NCBI GenBank assembly: GCA_963833575.1
Contig: CAWHXY010000004.1
Span: 544,001-608,000, forward strand
DNA: 64,000 bases
Direction: 5' to 3'
Source: Candidatus Bathyarchaeota archaeon
GTDB taxonomy: Archaea; Thermoproteota; Bathyarchaeia; Bathyarchaeales; Bathycorpusculaceae
A model generated the notes under the pieces. The model searched no databases. It was not told the origin of the DNA and saw nothing but the letters and a program-made list of their open reading frames with translations. Below are positions 54,801 to 64,000 of the stretch, one piece after another. The position numbers and the translations under genes are program-made. Every line of letters begins with the position of its first letter. The stretch's first letter is position 1.

Positions 54801-56279
54801 ATGAAAGTGCTTCTTGTTAATCCGCCTCAAACATTTTATCCAGGCTCAGAACAGCCGGCAGGAAATATTCCTTTGGGCTTGATGTACATTGGGGCGGTTC
54901 TTGAAGGAGCAGGTTACAAATCTGAAATATTGGATGCGTTCATGGCTGATTGTTTGTTCCAAAAAAAAGGCGAAACCATCAACGTTGGAATGCCGTTTGA
55001 TCAAATACTACAAGAAATTCGCATTCGCAAACCCGACATTGTCGGCATAGCAGGACCATTTTCGAGTCAAATAGAAAATTCAGTTAAAATAAGCGAGTTA
55101 GCCAAACAAGTTAACCCAAGTATTTTAACAGTTGTAGGCGGTCCCCACGTCACTACGGTACCGAAAGAGTTTCTTGAAGAAGCAAAAAATGTTGACGTCG
55201 CTGTAATGGGAGAAGGAGAATACGCCATGCTTGACATAGCCAAGTTTTTTGAAGGCAAAAAAGAGCTGCATGAAATTCTTGGAGTCGCCTACCGTCAAAA
55301 TGGAAAAGTGATGATAAATTCTCCCAGACCCTTCATCAGAAACTTAGATGAACTTCCATACCCTGCCTACGACTTAATCGATATGGAGAAGTATTTAACT
55401 AACAAAAAAATAGGGTACCGCAGCTTCAGAAACAGAGCAATATCGATGGTAACAAGCAGAGGATGCCCCTTTAACTGCTGTTTTTGTTCCGTTCATCTAC
55501 ATATGGGCAAGGAGTTTAGAGCCCACTCTGCAAGGTACGTTTTAAAACACATCGATTATGTTGTGGAAAAATTCAATGTCCAGAACATTTTTTTTGAGGA
55601 CGACAATCTTACCTTTGACTTAAGCAGGTTTGAAGCAATCTGTGACGGATTAATTGAGAAGAAAATTAAGATTGGTTGGGAAACACCAAACGGCGTTAGA
55701 GCAGACCGCTTAAACTTAAAGTTGCTTCAAAAAATGAAAAAATCAGGCGCCCAAAGCGTATTTTTCGGTGTAGAATCAGGCGACCAGCAAATCTTGAACA
55801 ATGTAATTTACAAGAGCCTAGACTTGGACCGAGTTGTGGAGGTCGCAAAAATTTGCAAGGACATTAAATTAAAAACCGGCGCATTTTACATTATCGGTTT
55901 TCCAGGCGAAACCAAAGAGAACATGCAGAAAACCGTTGATTTTGCTTTAAAGCTTAAACGGGATTTTGATGTTGGAATGCATCTGTTCATCGCTACTCCG
56001 TCATACGGGACGAGATTGTATGACGAATGTAAAGCTAAGGGTTACATTCGAGAAGATTTGAGTTGGAATTCTTTTGCTGAAGCACGTCAACCCAAAGGTA
56101 TGCCTCTGATTTCGACTGAAGACTTTTCCCCTCAAGAAGTCAAAGAGATAGCTGCTAAAGCGCTTGAGGAGTACAAAAAACTATCTTTATTGAACCATAT
56201 TAAAAATCCGAAAAAAGCGTTAAAGACAGCATTTGATCAACCACAACTAATTTTGAAATACATCAAAAACTTGTTATAG
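54801..56279 (+). CDS. B12-binding radical SAM protein
   Basis: PLGLMYI, VGGPH, TSRGCPFNCCFC, FEDD, GVESG, IGFPGET. Confidence 0.93.
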   Translation: MKVLLVNPPQTFYPGSEQPAGNIPLGLMYIGAVLEGAGYKSEILDAFMADCLFQKKGETINVGMPFDQILQEIRIRKPDIVGIAGPFSSQIENSVKISELAKQVNPSILTVVGGPHVTTVPKEFLEEAKNVDVAVMGEGEYAMLDIAKFFEGKKELHEILGVAYRQNGKVMINSPRPFIRNLDELPYPAYDLIDMEKYLTNKKIGYRSFRNRAISMVTSRGCPFNCCFCSVHLHMGKEFRAHSARYVLKHIDYVVEKFNVQNIFFEDDNLTFDLSRFEAICDGLIEKKIKIGWETPNGVRADRLNLKLLQKMKKSGAQSVFFGVESGDQQILNNVIYKSLDLDRVVEVAKICKDIKLKTGAFYIIGFPGETKENMQKTVDFALKLKRDFDVGMHLFIATPSYGTRLYDECKAKGYIREDLSWNSFAEARQPKGMPLISTEDFSPQEVKEIAAKALEEYKKLSLLNHIKNPKKALKTAFDQPQLILKYIKNLL

Positions 56280-56328
56280 GCAAGGAGTGCGGCAAAATTT
56301 TGGAGTATTCAGGCAACTCCAAACATTG

Positions 56329-56474
56329 GAAGAAGAAGAAAACTTGCGGTGTGCACACTTCTTCTTCTTTGCAAGCTTAGAAGAAGGAGGACAATCGCAG
56401 GGAGCACCGTCCTCCTTCTTCTTTCAAGAGAAGAACAACAACAGTTGCCCGTAGCACCGGGTTGTTGTTCGTCT
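56329..56474. repeat. Three tandem ~50-nt hairpin units with covarying stems
   Basis: GAAGAAGAAG/CTTCTTCTTC, AGAAGAAGGAGGAC/GTCCTCCTTCTTCT, AGAAGAACAACAAC/GTTGTTGTTCGTCT; loops share GC-N5-GCAC. Confidence 0.8.
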
Positions 56475-56552
56475 TTAGATAAAAGCCCAATCGAAAAATT
56501 TAGGATAACTTGCATTTTTTGCCATACCAATTAGTTTGAAGCGGAACTGCTG

Positions 56553-56580
56553 GGATTCGCCTAAAAGTTTAATCGAATCT
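56553..56580. repeat. 11-6-11 inverted-repeat site 1 (att/dif-like)
   Basis: GGATTCGCCTA-AAAGTT-TAATCGAATCT, preceded by degenerate GCGGAACTGCTG. Confidence 0.55.
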
Positions 56581-56782
56581 TTTCTCAGAATAGCAATCAA
56601 TACGGCGGCGATCATATCTTAATTACGATGCGAATATTTATAGTCGAAGTTTACCTATCTTAGTCTGCGGAATGGAGCCGCATTGTGTAACTGGAAAGAA
56701 GGGAGACTACCAAACTCGAAGATCCCGAGAAATGGGTCTTTGCTTCTGAGCCATTCTGTATTTGTGTGCAGGTTGAAGAATT

Positions 56783-57682
56783 ATGACTGAAGGATTAAAC
56801 ACTATTATGAACAGGCCATTTGAAGTAGATAACTCAGAATACCCGTTCAAAGACAACTGGCTATCTTATCGTGATGGGTATATTCATTATCTTGATGAGG
56901 GAAAAGGACCTACTCTTCTGCTTCTTCACGGAAATCCCACGTGGTCATATATTTACAGAAATATCATCAAGGAATTGCGAGGAGAATGTCGCTTAATCGC
57001 TTTGGATTATCCGGGATTCGGGATGTCAAAAGCACCTTCCCAATATGGGTTTACACCCCAAGAATAGTCAGAGGTGGTCCTCGAATTGATCCGTCGCTTG
57101 GAATTAAAGAGCATCGTCCTTGTGGTTCAAGATTGGGGTGGACCTATCGGTATGAACTATGCAGTTCAGAACAGATCAAACCTTCGCGGACTTGTGGTAA
57201 TGAACACTTGGGCATGGCCCGCATCCTTTCTTCAAAGACTATTCTCCCTTGTTATGGGAGGATGGCCCATAGGGTACTGGCTTCAAACACACAGAAATTA
57301 CTTTGCAAAAGCAATGTTACCCGATGGGATTTTCCACAAAGAAAAGGTTACGCCTAGTTTGAGAAAAGCCTATACTGACCCATTTCCGACGGTGAACTCA
57401 AGGAAACCCACCTATATTTTCCCGGGGCAGATCCGAAAAGCGCATGCGTGGCTGGGAAAGATTGAGTCAAAACTCCCGATTCTGGGGGACCTGCCAGCAC
57501 AAATTCTCTGGGGAAATAAGAACGACCCCGGTTTCGGACCTAAAGAACTGGAAAAGTGGCAAGGATTTCTAAAGATGCATGAAACTGAGACCATTGATGA
57601 TGCTTCACACTCTGTTCAAGAGGATCGACCTGATCGGGTTGTCGCGGCTATCCGAAGAGTTCTTGAGAGAACGCACGGCTAG
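56783..57682 (+). pseudogene. Haloalkane-dehalogenase-like alpha/beta hydrolase interrupted by in-frame TAG (57065-57067)
   Basis: LHGNPTWS, DYPGFGMS, VQDWGG, NTW, H..QED; both halves in the same frame. Confidence 0.85.
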
Positions 57683-57902
57683 GTCTTATTAAAGTAGTTT
57701 GAAATGTCTCATAGCTAAGGGCACTTCTTACCGAGGTCCAGCGCACTCAATCTTCTCCAGAATCTCCCACAATTGCCGACTCCTTGACACAATATTTAGC
57801 AAACGCTAAAACTCTTTTTAATGAAAGAAATGCGAAGCAATAAAGTGAACTCTTCTAGAATGACTAATGCGCGCACTTCGTCTCGTTCAAGCTTGTATTA
57901 TG

Positions 57903-57930
57903 GGATTCGTTTAATAAAATAGGCAAATCC
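57903..57930. repeat. 11-6-11 inverted-repeat site 2
   Basis: GGATTCGTTTA-ATAAAA-TAGGCAAATCC. Confidence 0.55.
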
Positions 57931-57957
57931 TAAATTTTCCTTGGAAAAAAGTTAAGA

Positions 57958-57996
57958 CGGGCCCGCTGGGACTCGCTTAATTATTTAAGCGAATCC
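57958..57996. repeat. 11-6-11 inverted-repeat site 3 fused to tRNA 3'-end-like sequence
   Basis: GGACTCGCTTA-ATTATT-TAAGCGAATCC; minus strand reads ...GAGTCCCAGCGGGCCCG (T-stem plus acceptor 3' strand). Confidence 0.65.
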
Positions 57997-58320
57997 TAAG
58001 TAATAAGAACAAAACTTTCTTCGTAACAAGTGAACTGTGGGGATTTGAGCCTCTGCCAGAGTGGAGATATCAACCTAAGACCCAAAATTTTGTTGGCTTT
58101 ATGTCAAACTTCTGAAATACAAATTAAAATGAATGACTACCTTGCGCGCGCCACCTTTACTGCTAGCCAGCAAGCACGTGAGACACGGAAAGAAGGAATA
58201 GATTTCGAGTGGCAATTGTTGAGCGATCATAAGTTAATTGACGTTTTACTTAACTTTTCAGAAAGAAAAATGGGGTGATTGCTGTTTTCTCTATTCAGCC
58301 TTGTTCACATAGCCATGTTG

Positions 58321-58950
58321 TTAAGTGAACCAGTACGTGTAAGTTTCCTCATTAACGGAATACAAAGGTGCTCCGGTGATCGGATTACTTACGGTTACTC
58401 CCACAGACGACTCCGTTATCATATATATTCCTCTAAGCGTCCCGCTCGTACCGAACTGCGTTGCAACAGCCGAAGTTTGTAATCCGAAGAGCATGTCTCC
58501 ATGATGTACCGTTATTCCATAGGCTGTAATGTCAGGTCCATTATAGGTGAACAAGCCAAGTCCATTAAATTTAACGAATACGATGCCATGAGTAACTCCT
58601 GCTCCTGGATAGGTCCATACACTCGGCGAAACATCGGATCCAGTGAGTGTCTCTAAATTAAGTGTAATATAGTTTGTTTCTGTGTTTGTGGTTACTCCCC
58701 CTCCCCATGGTGCTCCAAATTCCGTCCATTTTCCAGTTGCTCCCGTTTGATGCATAACATTATTACTGTCCACATAGGAGGTCCCAGGACTGGTACCAAC
58801 GCCAATTCCATACCAAGTGAAAGAGCCATGTTTTGGCGTTTGTGTACATGCCATAGCTGGTGCAGATGCAACAAACACCATAAGCAAAGCAATAGAGAAA
58901 ACTAAAATCATAGTTCTTTTTATTTTCATCTTTTTCACCTCCACTGACAT
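58321..58950 (-). CDS. Secreted beta-rich hypothetical protein
   Basis: KKMKIKR-hydrophobic-APAMA signal peptide; Thr/Gly-rich; SD GGAGGTGA. Confidence 0.75.
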   Translation of the reverse strand: MSVEVKKMKIKRTMILVFSIALLMVFVASAPAMACTQTPKHGSFTWYGIGVGTSPGTSYVDSNNVMHQTGATGKWTEFGAPWGGGVTTNTETNYITLNLETLTGSDVSPSVWTYPGAGVTHGIVFVKFNGLGLFTYNGPDITAYGITVHHGDMLFGLQTSAVATQFGTSGTLRGIYMITESSVGVTVSNPITGAPLYSVNEETYTYWFT

Positions 58951-59138
58951 CTTTGTCTTGTTCTGTGTCTAGAAAAATAATTAATCATTTTTCTAGTAGT
59001 AAATCACTTCATAATTCGTTAAAAACCAAAAATATTAGATTATTACGACAACCACTGTCGAATGAACACATTTACGTCATTAAACAGTCTATTGCGTTAA
59101 ATAATAGTTGGTTTTACTGAATAGAGTGCAAAATAATC

Positions 59139-59507
59139 TTATTGATTTTTCTTGTTCATTATTCTGTTATCAATAATGCGTTTTATTGTTTCTTTTTCGT
59201 AGGCAACTCTTAGTTTTAAGATTTTGCCGCCCCGACCCCTTTCACCTGGAAAGAATCGAGCTTCAACTAGACCCCGACTCTCCAATTCAATCAACGCCTT
59301 TCCCCTGCGTCCTCCATAGCCATACATACTGGACCTTGACAACCTTCCTTCATTAATAATATTCATTAAAGATCTCCAACCAGCTTTTTCCTGTGCAATT
59401 CTACGTTGCATATAATCTTCGACAAAAGCTCTTACAAGACAGTCAAAGGCTTTCTGGGCAACTTCAGATTTGAACTCAAATCTATCGAATATGACCGAGG
59501 TGACCAT
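59139..59507 (-). CDS. Duplicated C-terminal wHTH segment of the STAND gene (carries the original stop)
   Basis: Nucleotide-identical to the 3' end of 59611-62847. Confidence 0.5.
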   Translation of the reverse strand: MVTSVIFDRFEFKSEVAQKAFDCLVRAFVEDYMQRRIAQEKAGWRSLMNIINEGRLSRSSMYGYGGRRGKALIELESRGLVEARFFPGERGRGGKILKLRVAYEKETIKRIIDNRIMNKKNQ

Positions 59508-60111
59508 TTCTCCATTAATAGCGGAAGATACAGGTTCAACATGTATCTTTACAGGTATAATGGTGCTCGTTTTGGTCTTTCCTAACTCATCTAAATAAAC
59601 TACTTTCGGGTTAGAGTTGAAAACCCCTATTTTTCTTGTTCATTATTCTGTTATCAATAATGCGTTTTATTGTTTCTTTTTCGTAGGCAACTCTTAGTTT
59701 TAAGATTTTGCCGCCCCGACCCCTTTCACCTGGAAAGAATCGAGCTTCAACTAGACCCCGACTCTCCAATTCAATCAACGCCTTTCCCCTGCGTCCTCCA
59801 TAGCCATACATACTGGACCTTGACAACCTTCCTTCATTAATAATATTCATTAAAGATCTCCAACCAGCTTTTTCCTGTGCAATTCTACGTTGCATATAAT
59901 CTTCGACAAAAGCTCTTACAAGACAGTCAAAGGCTTTCTGGGCAACTTCAGATTTGAACTCAAATCTATCGAATATGACCGAGGTGACCATTTCTCCATT
60001 AATAGCGGAAGATACAGGTTCAACATGTATCTTTACAGGTATAATGGTGCTCGTTTTGGTCTTTCCTAACTCATCTAAATAAACTACTTTCGGGTTAGAG
60101 TTGAAAACCCC
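59145..60111. repeat. Exact 483-bp tandem duplication (59145-59627 = 59629-60111)
   Basis: Base-by-base comparison found no differences; single T between the copies. Confidence 0.9.
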
Positions 60112-62847
60112 AGCTTTCAATGCCTGCAAAGTAAGCTTCACAGTCACAACTTGAAAAGCGCCAATTTCCTTGTTTTTCGTCTCAATGCAAAAATTCTTGA
60201 AATCGAAATTGGGCGACAGAGCGGTAACTTTGAATCCGTCCGAAGGAATTATGCCCTCAACTTTGATGAACACGCCTGGCTTCCGTGAGGCGTTCACCAA
60301 ATCGAGACGCATCTCCAACTCTTCGCCAACCATAACTTCTTTACGAACCATCAAATGCGTTTGTAAATTAACATGGGCAAACCTTTGTTCAATTTCTTGA
60401 ACAGCATTCTGCAATTCTTCACTCTGAACCCTAGCCTCCTCAAATCGACCTTCCTTCTCAAGAGCCCAAACATAAAATGTTTTTCCATAAATTTCAGCTC
60501 CGATTGGAGTGGGTATGGTTGGCATCACAACCTCATCAAATAGTCGTTCTTTGAAACATCGGTTTGCGTCTTTCCACTCGCTTTTTCCTGTGAAAAAGAC
60601 TGCTTTGGACAGTGCTCCCTCTACAAACACGTTCTTTTGCACTTCAGCAGGCAGTTTCACGAATTTGTCAAAGTATTCTTCTGCGTGCTTCAAGTCTCCA
60701 AGTCGGGAATATATCCTAGAAAGGTTAGTATATACAATCCCTGGGGCTATGAGATTATCTGTTTTCTTTGATGCCTCCAAAGCTTTCAGACAGTAAGACA
60801 GCGCCTTTTCCCAATCGCCCATAAGCTCATATGGTCGAGCCGAAAAAGCATTTGCATAGACCAACCTGTTATACTCACCCATTTTCAATTTCTCATCAAT
60901 TTCTATAACTTTCGCAAACATCCCTAACGCTTCTTGATTAAGTCCCAAATTGCAGAAGTTTTCGCCTGCTGGCCAGTAGGCCTCCATTTGGAAACGAAAA
61001 TCACCCAGTTCCTCAAAAAGTACAATCGCGCGCAACGACTCAGCTATTCCTTCATAGGAATTGCCAAGCAGAGAATGGTACATTCCCACTCCAACCAAAG
61101 CCAATGCGAAGTCCCAATAAGAATGCTCTTCCTCAAAAATACGCAAAGCATTTGCCATGTCTTCAAGCGCAAGCTTAACATTCCCCTGCCCGAAAAAGCT
61201 GACTCTTCCTCGGTTAATTAGAACTCTTGCGTTTTCTAACCGATCGCATTCAAAATATGGTTCAGCTTTGTTGATCAGTTCCATTAATTGAGGAATATCC
61301 ATGCATTGAAAAGCAGATTCCATTGCCTTTCTTAAAGCGCGCAGCTTTGTGATGCCCGTTTCATTCTTGCCCAATTCCTCGAATGTTCTAATTGCTTCTT
61401 TGAACATGCTATTGGCGTAGTAAGCGTCTCCCAATCCCTCCCAAGCCTTTCTTCTATTTTCAGCGTTTTTAGTATTTCCGGCGAGGCTACCCAAAATATA
61501 AGTGAAGTGTTTGATGGCTTCCTCGTTGCTCCACCTCAGTAGTGCATCTCGTCCAGCGAGAAAGGAGTATTTCACCGCTTTTTCCTTATTTCCCGCTTGA
61601 GCGTAATGAAACGCCAAGTCATCAATTGAGAAACCATTCGCTTCATAGATGCCAGCTTCAATTTTCTCTGCAATCCTCGAATGGTACTCTTTTCTTAGGA
61701 GTGGAGGGATTTCCTCGTAAAGCATTTCTCGAGACTTTTCGTGACTAAACCTGCAGCAGTTTTCATCACAATGTATAATCAATGTGGTTTTTGCAGTCTC
61801 ATTTAGTGCTCTTAGAACGCTTGCATAGTCTTGTAACACTGCGGCAGCGATTAACTTGGGATCAAATTTTTCTCCCACTACAGAAGCTGCATCTAAGACT
61901 ATTCTTTGATCGGATTTCAAGGATTCTAATCTTAGCAGCATCACGTCCTTAATTTTTTTTGGAATTTCAAAGTTATCAACGCGGAGACTCCACTTACCGT
62001 TAGTTTTGATGAGTCTTCCTTGTTGATGCATCATTCTTAGAGATTCCACGACAAAAAGAGGATTGCCCATGGTATCGGTTGCTAACTTTTCCCCAAAATC
62101 TGAGAGCACTAATCCGCCTAACATGTTCTCAGCGATTCTTCGAACATCATCTTGGCTGAGGCTGGAAAGTTTAACTTCTCGGTAGAGATCCTCCCGCCCC
62201 ATTAGAAGTAGTTCTTTGGATAGTGGATTAGGATGACCTTCAATATTTACGTTGAGTCCCTCGCTTCTGAAAGTTGCTATGATGAGAATTCTCTCAGAAA
62301 CCGCTTGGCGGGCAAGATAATGAAGCAACGAAAGAGAAGCTGAATCAGCCCAGTGAAGGTCCTCCATAACTAAAATCAAGGGTTTTTTCGTTGATAAGAA
62401 CAGCAGTTCTTTAGCGATTGCCACAAACACCTGATCCTTCCATACTAGAGGAGATGTGTTTCCAAGTGTCTCGTTTGCTTCAGATTGATTTTTGATAAGC
62501 CATGATTTCATGCTTAATTGCTGATTAGCAATCGTTCCTCCATAGTGTTCATTGCTTGATATGTAAGAGTCAAAGGCTTCCATGAAGGGGAAGTAGGGAA
62601 CTGCGACGTTGCTTAGGCACCAGCCAGATAAGACAGTGACTTGCTTCTTCTTGACGATGTTTAAAAATTCTGTGGTAAGTCTGGTTTTTCCTGCGCCCGC
62701 CTCTCCAGAAATAAAAACGGTTACTCCTTTCCCTGACGAAGCCTGGGCTAAGCATCGTTTCAACTCTTCAAGCTCTTTTTCTCTTCCCACTAGAATTGGT
62801 TCAGCTAAGATTCCAGAAGTCAATTCTTGATTTTGCGCCCATTTCAA
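59611..62847 (-). CDS. STAND (AAA_16-type) ATPase - TPR - Ig-like - wHTH protein
   Basis: LVGRE.E, GEAGAGKT, EDLHWAD, GNPLF, TPR-like helices, beta-sandwich, C-terminal wHTH-like ELESRGLVE. Confidence 0.85.
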   Translation of the reverse strand: MKWAQNQELTSGILAEPILVGREKELEELKRCLAQASSGKGVTVFISGEAGAGKTRLTTEFLNIVKKKQVTVLSGWCLSNVAVPYFPFMEAFDSYISSNEHYGGTIANQQLSMKSWLIKNQSEANETLGNTSPLVWKDQVFVAIAKELLFLSTKKPLILVMEDLHWADSASLSLLHYLARQAVSERILIIATFRSEGLNVNIEGHPNPLSKELLLMGREDLYREVKLSSLSQDDVRRIAENMLGGLVLSDFGEKLATDTMGNPLFVVESLRMMHQQGRLIKTNGKWSLRVDNFEIPKKIKDVMLLRLESLKSDQRIVLDAASVVGEKFDPKLIAAAVLQDYASVLRALNETAKTTLIIHCDENCCRFSHEKSREMLYEEIPPLLRKEYHSRIAEKIEAGIYEANGFSIDDLAFHYAQAGNKEKAVKYSFLAGRDALLRWSNEEAIKHFTYILGSLAGNTKNAENRRKAWEGLGDAYYANSMFKEAIRTFEELGKNETGITKLRALRKAMESAFQCMDIPQLMELINKAEPYFECDRLENARVLINRGRVSFFGQGNVKLALEDMANALRIFEEEHSYWDFALALVGVGMYHSLLGNSYEGIAESLRAIVLFEELGDFRFQMEAYWPAGENFCNLGLNQEALGMFAKVIEIDEKLKMGEYNRLVYANAFSARPYELMGDWEKALSYCLKALEASKKTDNLIAPGIVYTNLSRIYSRLGDLKHAEEYFDKFVKLPAEVQKNVFVEGALSKAVFFTGKSEWKDANRCFKERLFDEVVMPTIPTPIGAEIYGKTFYVWALEKEGRFEEARVQSEELQNAVQEIEQRFAHVNLQTHLMVRKEVMVGEELEMRLDLVNASRKPGVFIKVEGIIPSDGFKVTALSPNFDFKNFCIETKNKEIGAFQVVTVKLTLQALKAGVFNSNPKVVYLDELGKTKTSTIIPVKIHVEPVSSAINGEMVTSVIFDRFEFKSEVAQKAFDCLVRAFVEDYMQRRIAQEKAGWRSLMNIINEGRLSRSSMYGYGGRRGKALIELESRGLVEARFFPGERGRGGKILKLRVAYEKETIKRIIDNRIMNKKNRGFQL

Positions 62848-63086
62848 ACTCTATTTTTAAGATAGTTGTAATGATATAAAAGTACTATTTCAAATTTAGG
62901 AATAAGTTAAAAAATAATTACGTCAATTCACAACACATTCATTTAAAGTCAAGTAATTTGTTTGCAAAATTCTCCTTGACAGAATCAATTATGACTTATT
63001 TGTTAACCTTCTTTATTTTTTGAGAATTAATAAAGCTCGCGCTATAACTAAAATCTAAATATTAGGAATATAAATAAGGGAAAAAC

Positions 63087-64000
63087 ATGAGTACACCACA
63101 ATCTGCTGTCAAGAAAAGGCTTAAAAGCCAATTGTTTGTGCCTGCCTTGCTTTTAGGTATGTTCTTAACATTCACATTTACAGTTTTCTTTAGTAATGCT
63201 ATGGTAAACGTAGCCTCGTCGCTAAAAGTTACTGTGGGAACAGCTAGCCAGATTTTGACCATCAGTTCTTTTGTGGGTCTTGTTGTAGGTTTTGTCATGG
63301 GCGTTTTGACAGTCCGATTCAAGCAGAAGTCATTGTTCCTGCTTGGAGTGGCACTTTTCAGCGTCGGAGCTATAGGTTGGTTTTTCGCCCCAGATTTTGC
63401 CTCTGCACTTTTCTTTAGCCTCTTTCTTGGAATTGGCACAGCAATGACTGGCACAGTTGTTTTCGCGTTAATTGGAGATTTTTTGCCTTTGGAAAAGAAG
63501 GGAATGTCAGTTGGTTTAGCTATGGCTGGTGTATTTATTGCGGACTTGGTTGTGCCTCAAGTAACGAGCGTAATTACGAATGCTGCAGGGTGGCGCGCTG
63601 TACTTTTATGGTTTATCTTTCCATTGTCCGTAGTTAGTTTGCTCTTTGGTTTTTTCATTCTTCCGTCAAAACCGCGGCAGGAACAAACTGCAAATAAGCC
63701 TCAATATTTGAAAACTTTCAAACAAATCTTGCTAAACAAATCTGCACTTGCATGTGTACTTGCAACGGCGCTTATGTGGGTCTCATTCCTAACGCCTGTT
63801 TATGCAGTATCATTTTACAGATTGTTTTTTAAGGAGACTTTGAGCATGGGCGCGATCTTTTATTCGATCGCTTCAGTAATGGGGATTATGGGTGTCATAT
63901 TTGGGGGGCGATTGATTAATCGAATCGGAAGGAAGCCCCTCACCGTCGTGACAGGTGTGATTCAGGGTGTATTCGCAGTTTTGATCGCCTTTATGCCTAA
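63087..64000 (+). CDS. MFS transporter, N-terminal part (runs off window)
   Basis: Manual translation MSTPQSAVKKRLKSQLFVPALLLGMFL..., multiple TMs, GWRAV, GRLINRIGRK motif A. Confidence 0.88.
   Translation, partial: MSTPQSAVKKRLKSQLFVPALLLGMFLTFTFTVFFSNAMVNVASSLKVTVGTASQILTISSFVGLVVGFVMGVLTVRFKQKSLFLLGVALFSVGAIGWFFAPDFASALFFSLFLGIGTAMTGTVVFALIGDFLPLEKKGMSVGLAMAGVFIADLVVPQVTSVITNAAGWRAVLLWFIFPLSVVSLLFGFFILPSKPRQEQTANKPQYLKTFKQILLNKSALACVLATALMWVSFLTPVYAVSFYRLFFKETLSMGAIFYSIASVMGIMGVIFGGRLINRIGRKPLTVVTGVIQGVFAVLIAFMP

Follow-up and report, generated by a model that had tools for sequence, protein, structure and literature searches.

Arrays of integrase-free gene cassettes with palindromic ends at tRNA-Arg genes of Bathyarchaeia

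Two tandem cassettes next to tRNA-Arg(CCG)

In the genome of a peat/soil Candidatus Bathyarchaeota archaeon (G000; 2.75 Mb, estimated to be 94% complete), we analysed a stretch of 64,000 nucleotides (G000:C4:544001-608000, hereafter the window) that holds part of an array of small gene cassettes next to a tRNA-Arg gene, together with three palindromic sites of 11-6-11 geometry that a first-pass annotation of the same sequence had noticed. A search with the pattern GGATTCGCTTA-N6-TAAGCGAATCC, in which up to 3 mismatches were allowed, returned exactly these three sites in the window (Table 1) and none in 100 dinucleotide-preserving shuffles, the chance expectation being 0. Genome-wide, a single extra copy was found at C4:104985-105012, 2 nucleotides (nt) past the 3' end of tRNA-Arg(TCT). 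In the following, G-numbers denote genomes of the genus set (n = 120) and L-numbers individual loci.

On the minus strand, site 3 continues into a tRNA 3' sequence (the core), CCCAGCGGGCCCG, which matches the 3' end of tRNA-Arg(GCG) (C4:713483-713560) at 13/13 bases and that of tRNA-Arg(CCG) at 12/13, and site 1 continues into the degenerate CCCAGCAGTTCCGC, in agreement with the earlier observation that two of the copies run into tRNA 3'-end-like sequence. ARAGORN and Rfam revealed no RNA gene in the window. The genome scan that had been proposed in order to find a matching tRNA located, with ARAGORN, tRNA-Arg(CCG) on the minus strand at C4:608391-608490 (window-equivalent 64391-64490), 391 bp past the window end. 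A split or intron-containing tRNA at site 3 was considered and rejected, since neither program found a tRNA there and the full tRNA lies outside the window. The three sites had also been described as sharing one orientation, which is definable through their flanks only; by this measure, sites 1 and 3 do agree and belong to a type in which the palindrome is fused to the tRNA core (palB), but site 2 is of another type, which lies behind a tRNA or core (palA).

Comparison with the closest relative, G009, showed that the sites lie in DNA inserted at the 3' end of tRNA-Arg(CCG). Homology between the two genomes extends to the end of a radical-SAM gene (protein 92% identical) and resumes exactly at the tRNA. 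Between these two points, 8.1 kb are present in G000 (56540-64000, on to ~64390), while G009 has an empty site measuring 195 bp from the gene to the tRNA. Because this empty site has neither palindrome, both palindromes belong to the inserted DNA. As expected of an integrative element, the insertion lies 3' of an intact tRNA, is absent from a relative and has a repeat of the tRNA 3' end at its far boundary, but an integrase of its own next to an attachment (att) site is lacking. The absence of an integrase from the window, already reported from the first reading, was borne out, all 5 PF00589 matches of the genome lying elsewhere.

Presence and absence of the insertion were seen between species. 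The gap between the gene and the tRNA could be measured in 16 of the 22 syntenic loci of the genus, namely those where the tRNA was located. Four of them had a gap of ~10-200 bp, four one of 0.6-1.1 kb, seven one of 4.4-8.1 kb and a single locus one of 21.3 kb. Invariant gene content combined with the lack of a matching tRNA had been named beforehand as the outcome that would speak against cassette accretion; what was found instead is content ranging from an empty site to 21 kb among relatives, and a matching tRNA. Moreover, tRNA-Arg(CCG) of G000 ends in CGAGCCC and both site 3 and the tRNA at the G009 empty site have CGGGCCC, which fits a tRNA end replaced by an incoming element. Behind the tRNA-Arg(CCG) of G000, a spacer-like sequence is followed by a half-decayed palA. 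Elsewhere in G000, no distal att site was found for the palA behind tRNA-Arg(TCT), and no att site was found behind tRNA-Arg(GCG).

Sites 3 and 2 together are the junction between two cassettes, E1 (6.4 kb) and E2 (1.4 kb), and site 1 is the decayed outer end. We hold with high confidence that the three sites are boundary modules of tandem cassettes at tRNA-Arg.

Table 1. Features of the insertion and its host flank, in window coordinates
Feature	Position	Strand	Remarks
B12-binding radical-SAM gene (host flank)	54801..56279	+	Pfam PF02310, PF04055; distal border of the insertion site; syntenic with tRNA-Arg(CCG) in relatives
Degenerate tRNA-Arg 3' core CCCAGCAGTTCCGC	56541..56554	-	Outermost attR-like end; 5 mismatches to the 18-nt core
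Site 1, palB of the hydrolase cassette (E2), decayed	56553..56580	-	3 mismatches; same position and sequence class in G099, G128, G044, G068, G081
Haloalkane-dehalogenase-like alpha/beta hydrolase (E2)	56783..57682	+	Only open reading frame between sites 1 and 2; Pfam PF00561, 89.9 bits
Site 2, palA of the hydrolase cassette (E2)	57903..57930	-	3 mismatches; identical in G099; 27 nt behind the core, as in other arrays
27-nt spacer TCTTAAC..TTTTCCAAGGAAAA.. between core and palA	57931..57957	-	Spacer class shared with other arrays
tRNA-Arg 3' core CCCAGCGGGCCCG, putative crossover region	57958..57970	-	E1/E2 junction; 13/13 to tRNA-Arg(GCG)
Site 3, palB of cassette E1, fused to core	57969..57996	-	1 mismatch; fits the consensus palB-core module
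Cassette E1	57997..64000, on to ~64390		Absent from G009; no integrase
Secreted-looking open reading frame, 209 aa (E1)	58321-58950	-	
Duplicate fragment open reading frame, 122 aa (E1)	59139-59507	-	
AAA_16/TPR ATPase, 1078 aa (E1)	59611-62847	-	
MFS transporter (E1)	63087->64000	+	

The claim that a hydrolase gene stands alone between sites 1 and 2 held, as this interval contains a single open reading frame (ORF). Its product scored 220 bits against NCBIfam NF002873, under the cut-off of 466. In G000 the frame is broken by an in-frame TAG (57065-57067), where metagenome contigs show CAA, and relatives have open frames of ~300 amino acids (aa). A nonsense mutation is the most likely explanation of the TAG, rather than recoding, and its reading as pyrrolysine was dropped in view of the open frames of the relatives and the CAA of the metagenome contigs.

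In E1, the 122-aa ORF is a near-exact repeat of the last ~120 residues of the 1078-aa ATPase, a winged-helix-like tail; the 3' end of the ATPase gene has thus been duplicated locally in tandem. Beyond the array, past the radical-SAM gene (56320-56480, plus strand), lie three tandem stem-loops with loops of 17-18 nt, whose purine-rich 5' arms (GAAGAAGAAGA, GAAGAAGGAGGA and GAAGAACAACAAC) have matching 3' arms. The RNA fold of this region reached -71.9 kcal/mol against -47.3 +/- 4.1 kcal/mol for shuffles (z = -6.0), with no Rfam match, and similar hairpins are present in the G009 empty site. In one metagenome contig, a 96-nt joint that goes back at the stem-loops suggests that the number of units varies.

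Architecture and movement of the cassettes across the genus

In the genus, 57 of 120 genomes carry the palindrome, at most 23 times each, and it was found in 0/16 genomes from other genera of the order. Its exact fusion to the core was recovered at 53 loci across all species-representative genomes, in records titled mostly as Candidatus Bathyarchaeota or Bathyarchaeia archaeon and in few cases as Nitrososphaerales, Thaumarchaeota or uncultured archaeon, and in 119 matching stretches from metagenomes, 80 of which were examined and provide the metagenome locus counts below.

The first type, palB (149 unique contexts), reads GGATTCGCTTAA-N4-TTAAGCG[C/A][A/G]TCC and is fused to CAGCGGGCCCG(CCA), the identity of the fused core to the tRNA starting at the last two bases of the T loop. 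The second type, palA (40 unique contexts), reads GGATTCGCTTAA-N4-TTAA[A/G]CGAATCC, is often followed by TTTTGAA, and lies 2-27 nt, sometimes ~50 nt, behind an intact tRNA-Arg or a core. Throughout the genus the layout is the same: a tRNA-Arg gene, or a copy of its 3' core, is followed by a spacer of 2-27 nt, palA, the cargo, and palB fused to CCCAGCGGGCCCG. Arrays headed by tRNA-Arg TCT, CCG, GCG and TCG were found. Among the 99 palB sites counted (unique sites in loci of at least 1.5 kb), 14 have palA within 70 nt after palB, the same arrangement as window sites 3 and 2, and further palB-core-palA junctions occur in metagenome contigs (n = 13). The 27-nt spacer class of the window is also present in these 13 metagenome junctions and behind tRNA-Arg(GCG) in G016.

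Complete cassettes from palA to palB (n = 14) measure 0.85-4.9 kb. The cargo is diverse and includes SnoaL/RibD_C pairs, ABC and MFS transporters, methyltransferases, AAA_16 STAND ATPases, DarT-Macro, an Eco57I-type restriction enzyme, acyltransferases, a GH130 enzyme and some transposases. Pfam scans of the ORFs around the palindromes in the genus loci revealed no integrase inside a palA..palB cassette. In the metagenome loci, of which 61 out of 80 had at least one ORF on the cassette side, PF00589 was matched at E<=1e-3 by 0 of the 101 ORFs closest to palB. A 476-aa integrase that adjoins palB at L019 (G016) belongs to a neighbouring tRNA-Pro-type element.

The hydrolase cassette recurs as a unit in several genomes. 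It is present in 10 of the 120 genomes, and its palB-to-palA identity in the other genomes is 87-94%. It is joined directly to intact tRNA-Arg(CCG) in G128 and to tRNA-Arg(GCG) in G044, and stands second in the array, behind the palB-core of another cassette, in G000, G099 and G081. On the distal side, palB is common to all six genomes aligned, and the flanks are unrelated past the core. In contigs of four public metagenome runs, similarity to the window is lost at 57957/57958 and at 57996/57997. One unit with constant ends thus occurs at different attachment genes and beside different neighbours, as expected of an integrase-less cassette, and the hydrolase cassette has moved as a unit between different tRNA-Arg genes. 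Besides, an E1-like gene set (an MFS transporter, a STAND ATPase and the 209-aa protein) is present at tRNA-Arg(TCT) in G019 and between palA and palB in G098.

Exchange point and candidate recombinases

Homology between genomes that share the hydrolase cassette stops at the tRNA-derived core of 13-18 bp, outside the palindrome centres. Tyrosine recombinases require matching overlap regions. The core is near-invariant, as required of an overlap region, while the palindrome centres vary, those of palB being mostly ATAA or TAGT and those of palA taking many forms. In 189 contexts, the left arm is conserved at 93-99% per position. Position 24 of palB is C in 64% of the copies and its pairing partner is T in 98%; position 21 of palA is A in 50% and G in 47%, and its partner is C in 100%. 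The arms thus vary independently and show no compensatory change, which argues against a hairpin maintained by pairing and would fit protein half-sites. Most likely, the palindromes serve as element-borne arms to which a dimeric protein binds, be it the recombinase itself or some accessory factor.

The 11-6-11 geometry had been taken as pointing to a Xer/dif-type core site. This argument found no support, since homology ends at the core, the centres differ, the arms vary independently and G000 has no XerA above the cut-off (best NF040815 match 69 bits, cut-off 220). Crossover in the manner of a Xer/dif-, pdif- or integron-like system probably does not take place at the 11-6-11 palindromes. From the earlier proposal of accretion by a trans-acting recombinase, the serial stacking of recombinase-free cassettes was supported, but the pdif- or integron-like mechanism attached to it was not.

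The reading that we favour, and judge likely, is serial core-specific integration at tRNA-Arg by a tyrosine recombinase supplied in trans, with the palindromes acting as arm or protein-binding sites; for mobilisation in trans by a core-specific recombinase as such, our confidence is moderate. A free cassette would be a circle with a minimal attP of ~95 bp, in which palB, core, spacer and palA follow each other. The tyrosine recombinase would then cross the 13-18 bp core with the identical tRNA-Arg 3' end (attB), and each newcomer would regenerate the tRNA and displace older cassettes outward. Read from the tRNA, the G000 array runs from tRNA-Arg(CCG) through a spacer, the decayed palA, E1, palB (site 3)-core and the 27-nt spacer to an outer part consisting of palA (site 2), E2, palB (site 1)-decayed core and host DNA. 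In G000, sites 1 and 2 have 3 mismatches each and poorly symmetric arms, and the outer core has 5 mismatches. Given the decay of these sites and of the outer core, the half-lost palA and the stop codon in the hydrolase gene, the array is best read as a fossil.

Candidates for the recombinase were sought among the integrases of the genus. One family of 425-463 aa, the third considered, gave no match in Pfam and shares 21-27% identity with the 476-aa integrases. A tRNA, or a 3' fragment of one, always precedes its genes at a distance of 70-100 nt (L199, L238, L321-L349, L351), and its subfamilies are found at tRNA-Arg, tRNA-Pro and several other tRNA genes. The Arg-specific members have the same core as the cassettes and are located in the same arrays. 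In G001 the gene adjoins tRNA-Arg(CCG) directly, in G012 a degenerate palB-core immediately precedes it, and in G016 and G099 cassettes do. Palindromes are present in 22/24 genomes that have this family and in 35/96 that do not. With a structural model of one member, Foldseek returned 41 hits at E<=1e-3, the top ones all tyrosine recombinases (XerA, E 1.6e-6; Cre; IntI; lambda Int), with TM-scores of 0.22-0.40. The invariant residues R147, K192, R269, H296 and Y304 fit the tyrosine-recombinase pattern (R..K..HxxR..H/W..Y) by eye. The resemblance of the model to XerA, Cre and IntI suggests that this is probably a divergent tyrosine integrase family, and its Arg-specific members are candidate trans-acting recombinases for the cassettes, although their action on cassette sites is our conjecture. 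G000 itself has a 5' fragment only of a member, next to tRNA-Val (C7:167353-167976).

In G046, this tRNA-Arg(CCG) locus is occupied by one element of 21.3 kb (G046:C3:295456-316716; L350/L351) with palB-core at the far end and half a palindrome behind the tRNA. Besides two recombinases, one canonical (419 aa) and one of the 425-463 aa family, it encodes a ParA-like ATPase, a type I restriction-modification system, a TBP paralogue and an AAA_21/AAA_15 ATPase whose neighbour is HNH. It may be an autonomous relative of the cassettes.

Other recombinases were rejected as the cassette recombinase. The 476-aa integrases target other tRNAs (e.g. Pro), and the palindrome follows them in 1/30 loci. For a family of 450-500 aa (L081, L112-L141, L198, L201), palindromes are present in 15/31 genomes that have it and in 42/89 that do not; here an intact tRNA, in most cases Arg(TCG), begins 60-120 nt past the gene, and two long loci have a 16-20 nt copy of the tRNA 5' end beside tRNA-Ile, at 16-18 kb upstream. 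These elements of 16-18 kb therefore integrate into the tRNA 5' end (~20 nt). The 389-aa (L082) and 419-aa (G046) recombinases have no homologues among the sequences searched.

Several observations weigh against our favoured reading. First, the E1-like set is inverted relative to G000 between palA and palB in G098:C29 (L092) and in G019:C53 (L379), and occurs with no att site nearby in four genomes (L374-L377), neither of which is predicted by a simple circle-integration model. Second, the short contig L082 carries the 389-aa integrase 1.3 kb from palB. Third, no excised circle or empty-site read was seen; the circular junctions that the first-pass annotation had suggested looking for did not turn up in metagenome contigs, where terminal repeats were found in 0/80. 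Fourth, concerning the candidate family, the counts of its co-occurrence with palindromes are uncorrected for shared ancestry; the mean pLDDT (predicted local distance difference test score) of the model is 67, with less than 50 in the catalytic region; and a sequence-profile search of the PDB was not significant (E 0.3 to XerA). Moreover, the elements that bear G001/G012-type Arg-specific recombinases lack palindromes at their termini, and G000 has no intact Arg-specific recombinase, which makes present-day activity in G000 unlikely.

The comparison with public runs, which covered assembled contigs only (<=0.23 of the sampled words), gave no trusted circle or deletion joint. One public-run contig joins 56279 to 57958 across unknown letters and was left uninterpreted. 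A scan of IMG/VR gave one hit. This stretch corresponds to part of a relative's chromosome and revealed no viral attP.

Alternative explanations and relation to known systems

Tentatively, the data may also be read more broadly, as an integron-like, tRNA-anchored gene-capture system of peat/soil Bathyarchaeia. Cassettes of one to a few genes, each with no more than a ~95-bp attP, would be taken up, stacked, reordered and perhaps inverted at any of the four tRNA-Arg genes by a dedicated tyrosine recombinase working in trans. A dimeric protein may then read the 28-bp palindromes, and the platform may have arisen independently of bacterial integrons.

It is unlikely, in our judgement, that no dedicated system exists and that the arrays consist of decayed integrase-bearing elements or proviruses at tRNA-Arg, shuffled via repeated junctions of ~40-95 bp, with palindromes that were kept through recent common descent or act as terminators or operators. 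According to the available text on Prochlorococcus islands, tandem arrays with degenerate att sites and lost integrases are common at tRNA genes (10.1101/2020.12.28.424599). Such an origin would agree with the decayed state of the outer core, of both E2 palindromes (sites 1 and 2) and of the palA that follows the tRNA in G000, with the resemblance of palA and TTTTGAA to a stem-loop plus T-run, with the integrase-bearing elements in the same arrays as the cassettes, with the large G046 element that has the same ends, and with E1-like genes that also occur without att sites. Against it, random decay would not have spared both ends around 14 different cargos of 0.85-4.9 kb, nor yielded 0/101 integrase remnants among the neighbouring ORFs, the same 1.4-kb cassette is found with precise ends at two tRNA-Arg genes and with varied neighbours, and the palindrome arms are conserved far above the adjacent cargo.

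A quite improbable alternative holds that the palindromes themselves are 11-6-11 recombination sites of Xer- or integron-like type, as in pdif modules, integrative mobile elements exploiting Xer (IMEX) or integrons, that cassettes are excised and inserted from one palindrome to another, and that the tRNA fragment is a passenger. Its appeal lies in the geometry (11-6-11 or 12-4-12), in the strongly conserved left arm and in some observations that point to exchange at or near the palindromes, as a rival or additional process: solo units consisting of a tRNA core, spacer, one palindrome and a second core (2 of the 99 palB sites, e.g. L097) resemble palA x palB deletion products; the inverted E1-like cargo in G098 and G019 is expected from exchange between palindromic sites; and the G000 spacer before site 2 is closer to that of another cassette than to that of the G099 hydrolase cassette, which hints at exchange near palA. 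Yet whole palindromes travel with the hydrolase cargo and homology stops at the core, the metagenome breaks fall at 57957/57958 and where site 3 ends on its outer side instead of in its centre, and palA and palB have different central bases, which also vary from copy to copy. In addition, a passenger role leaves the palB-core fusion in 149 unique contexts unexplained, arms with no compensatory changes argue against a folded attC-like substrate, G000 has no XerA above the NCBIfam cut-off, and the 4 copies in G000, and up to 23 elsewhere, are not one dif site.

Finally, a miniature inverted-repeat transposable element (MITE)-like unit of palindrome and spacer that targets tRNA-Arg 3' ends with target duplication, trapping the cassettes between insertions, is very improbable: although solo spacer-palindrome units between two cores (L097) and copy numbers of 0 to 23 per genome would suit it, the spacer motif is not found in front of palB, the cassette ends are not two copies of one unit, there is no consistent nearby transposase (DDE transposase hits are 3/101 neighbouring ORFs), and a 13-18 bp 'duplication' identical to the tRNA end better fits site-specific recombination.

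The arrays resemble the tandem accretion of integrative elements at tRNA genes of other organisms. In Streptococcus, cis-mobilizable elements (CIME) that have no integrase accrete with ICEs (elements that are integrative and conjugative); in Sulfolobus 'gene capture' at tRNA genes is known. As in such accretion systems, the 3' part of the tRNA is targeted and regenerated, a partial tRNA copy marks each boundary, newer elements displace older ones outward, integrase-less members would rely on an outside recombinase, and the cargo is accessory (transporters, defence genes, enzymes). In contrast, the units of Bathyarchaeia are tiny (0.85-4.9 kb, often one gene), two 28-bp palindromes around a tRNA-derived core are their only conserved parts, tRNA identity begins only with the last 2 nt of the T loop, and genes for all four tRNA-Arg isoacceptors found head arrays. 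The tycheposon islands of Prochlorococcus, in the available text of their description, have partial tRNAs, repeated integration at one site and degenerate remnants (10.1101/2020.12.28.424599).

With integrons, the arrays share small, mostly single-gene and functionally unrelated cassettes that carry no recombinase, imperfect inverted repeats at each boundary and serial capture at one chromosomal site. They differ in that no IntI-type integrase lies beside the array, a tRNA gene stands at its head, and each boundary consists of two short, near-perfect palindromes that enclose a tRNA fragment, instead of one attC. An attC site is built of R''-L''/L'-R' boxes and has extrahelical bases, whereas here the arms have no compensatory variation, no Rfam match was obtained, and exchange maps between two palindromes and not to one repeat edge. 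The likeness to Xer/dif, IMEX and pdif systems consists in the 11-6-11 geometry and in tandem arrays of recombinase-free elements flanked by sites; the differences are the several copies per genome with differing centres, the constant tie of the sites to tRNA-Arg ends, the lack of an XerA above the cut-off and breaks that lie outside the palindromes. Full-text literature searches, whose scope left out subscription journals and supplementary files, yielded no description of a palB-core cassette system. The available text of a paper on Bathyarchaeia viruses (PMC10848311) mentions integrases, and no such sites.

These results bear on gene exchange in uncultured Bathyarchaeia, of which little is documented. 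They also indicate that 11-6-11 geometry by itself is a poor guide to Xer-type function. Since the cassette ends are precise and recognisable, accessory genes can be delimited in metagenome-assembled genomes, and the palB-core fusion provides a sequence tag for tracing gene flow in peat and soil archaea. The minimal site of ~95 bp would be testable as a tool for site-specific integration in archaea.

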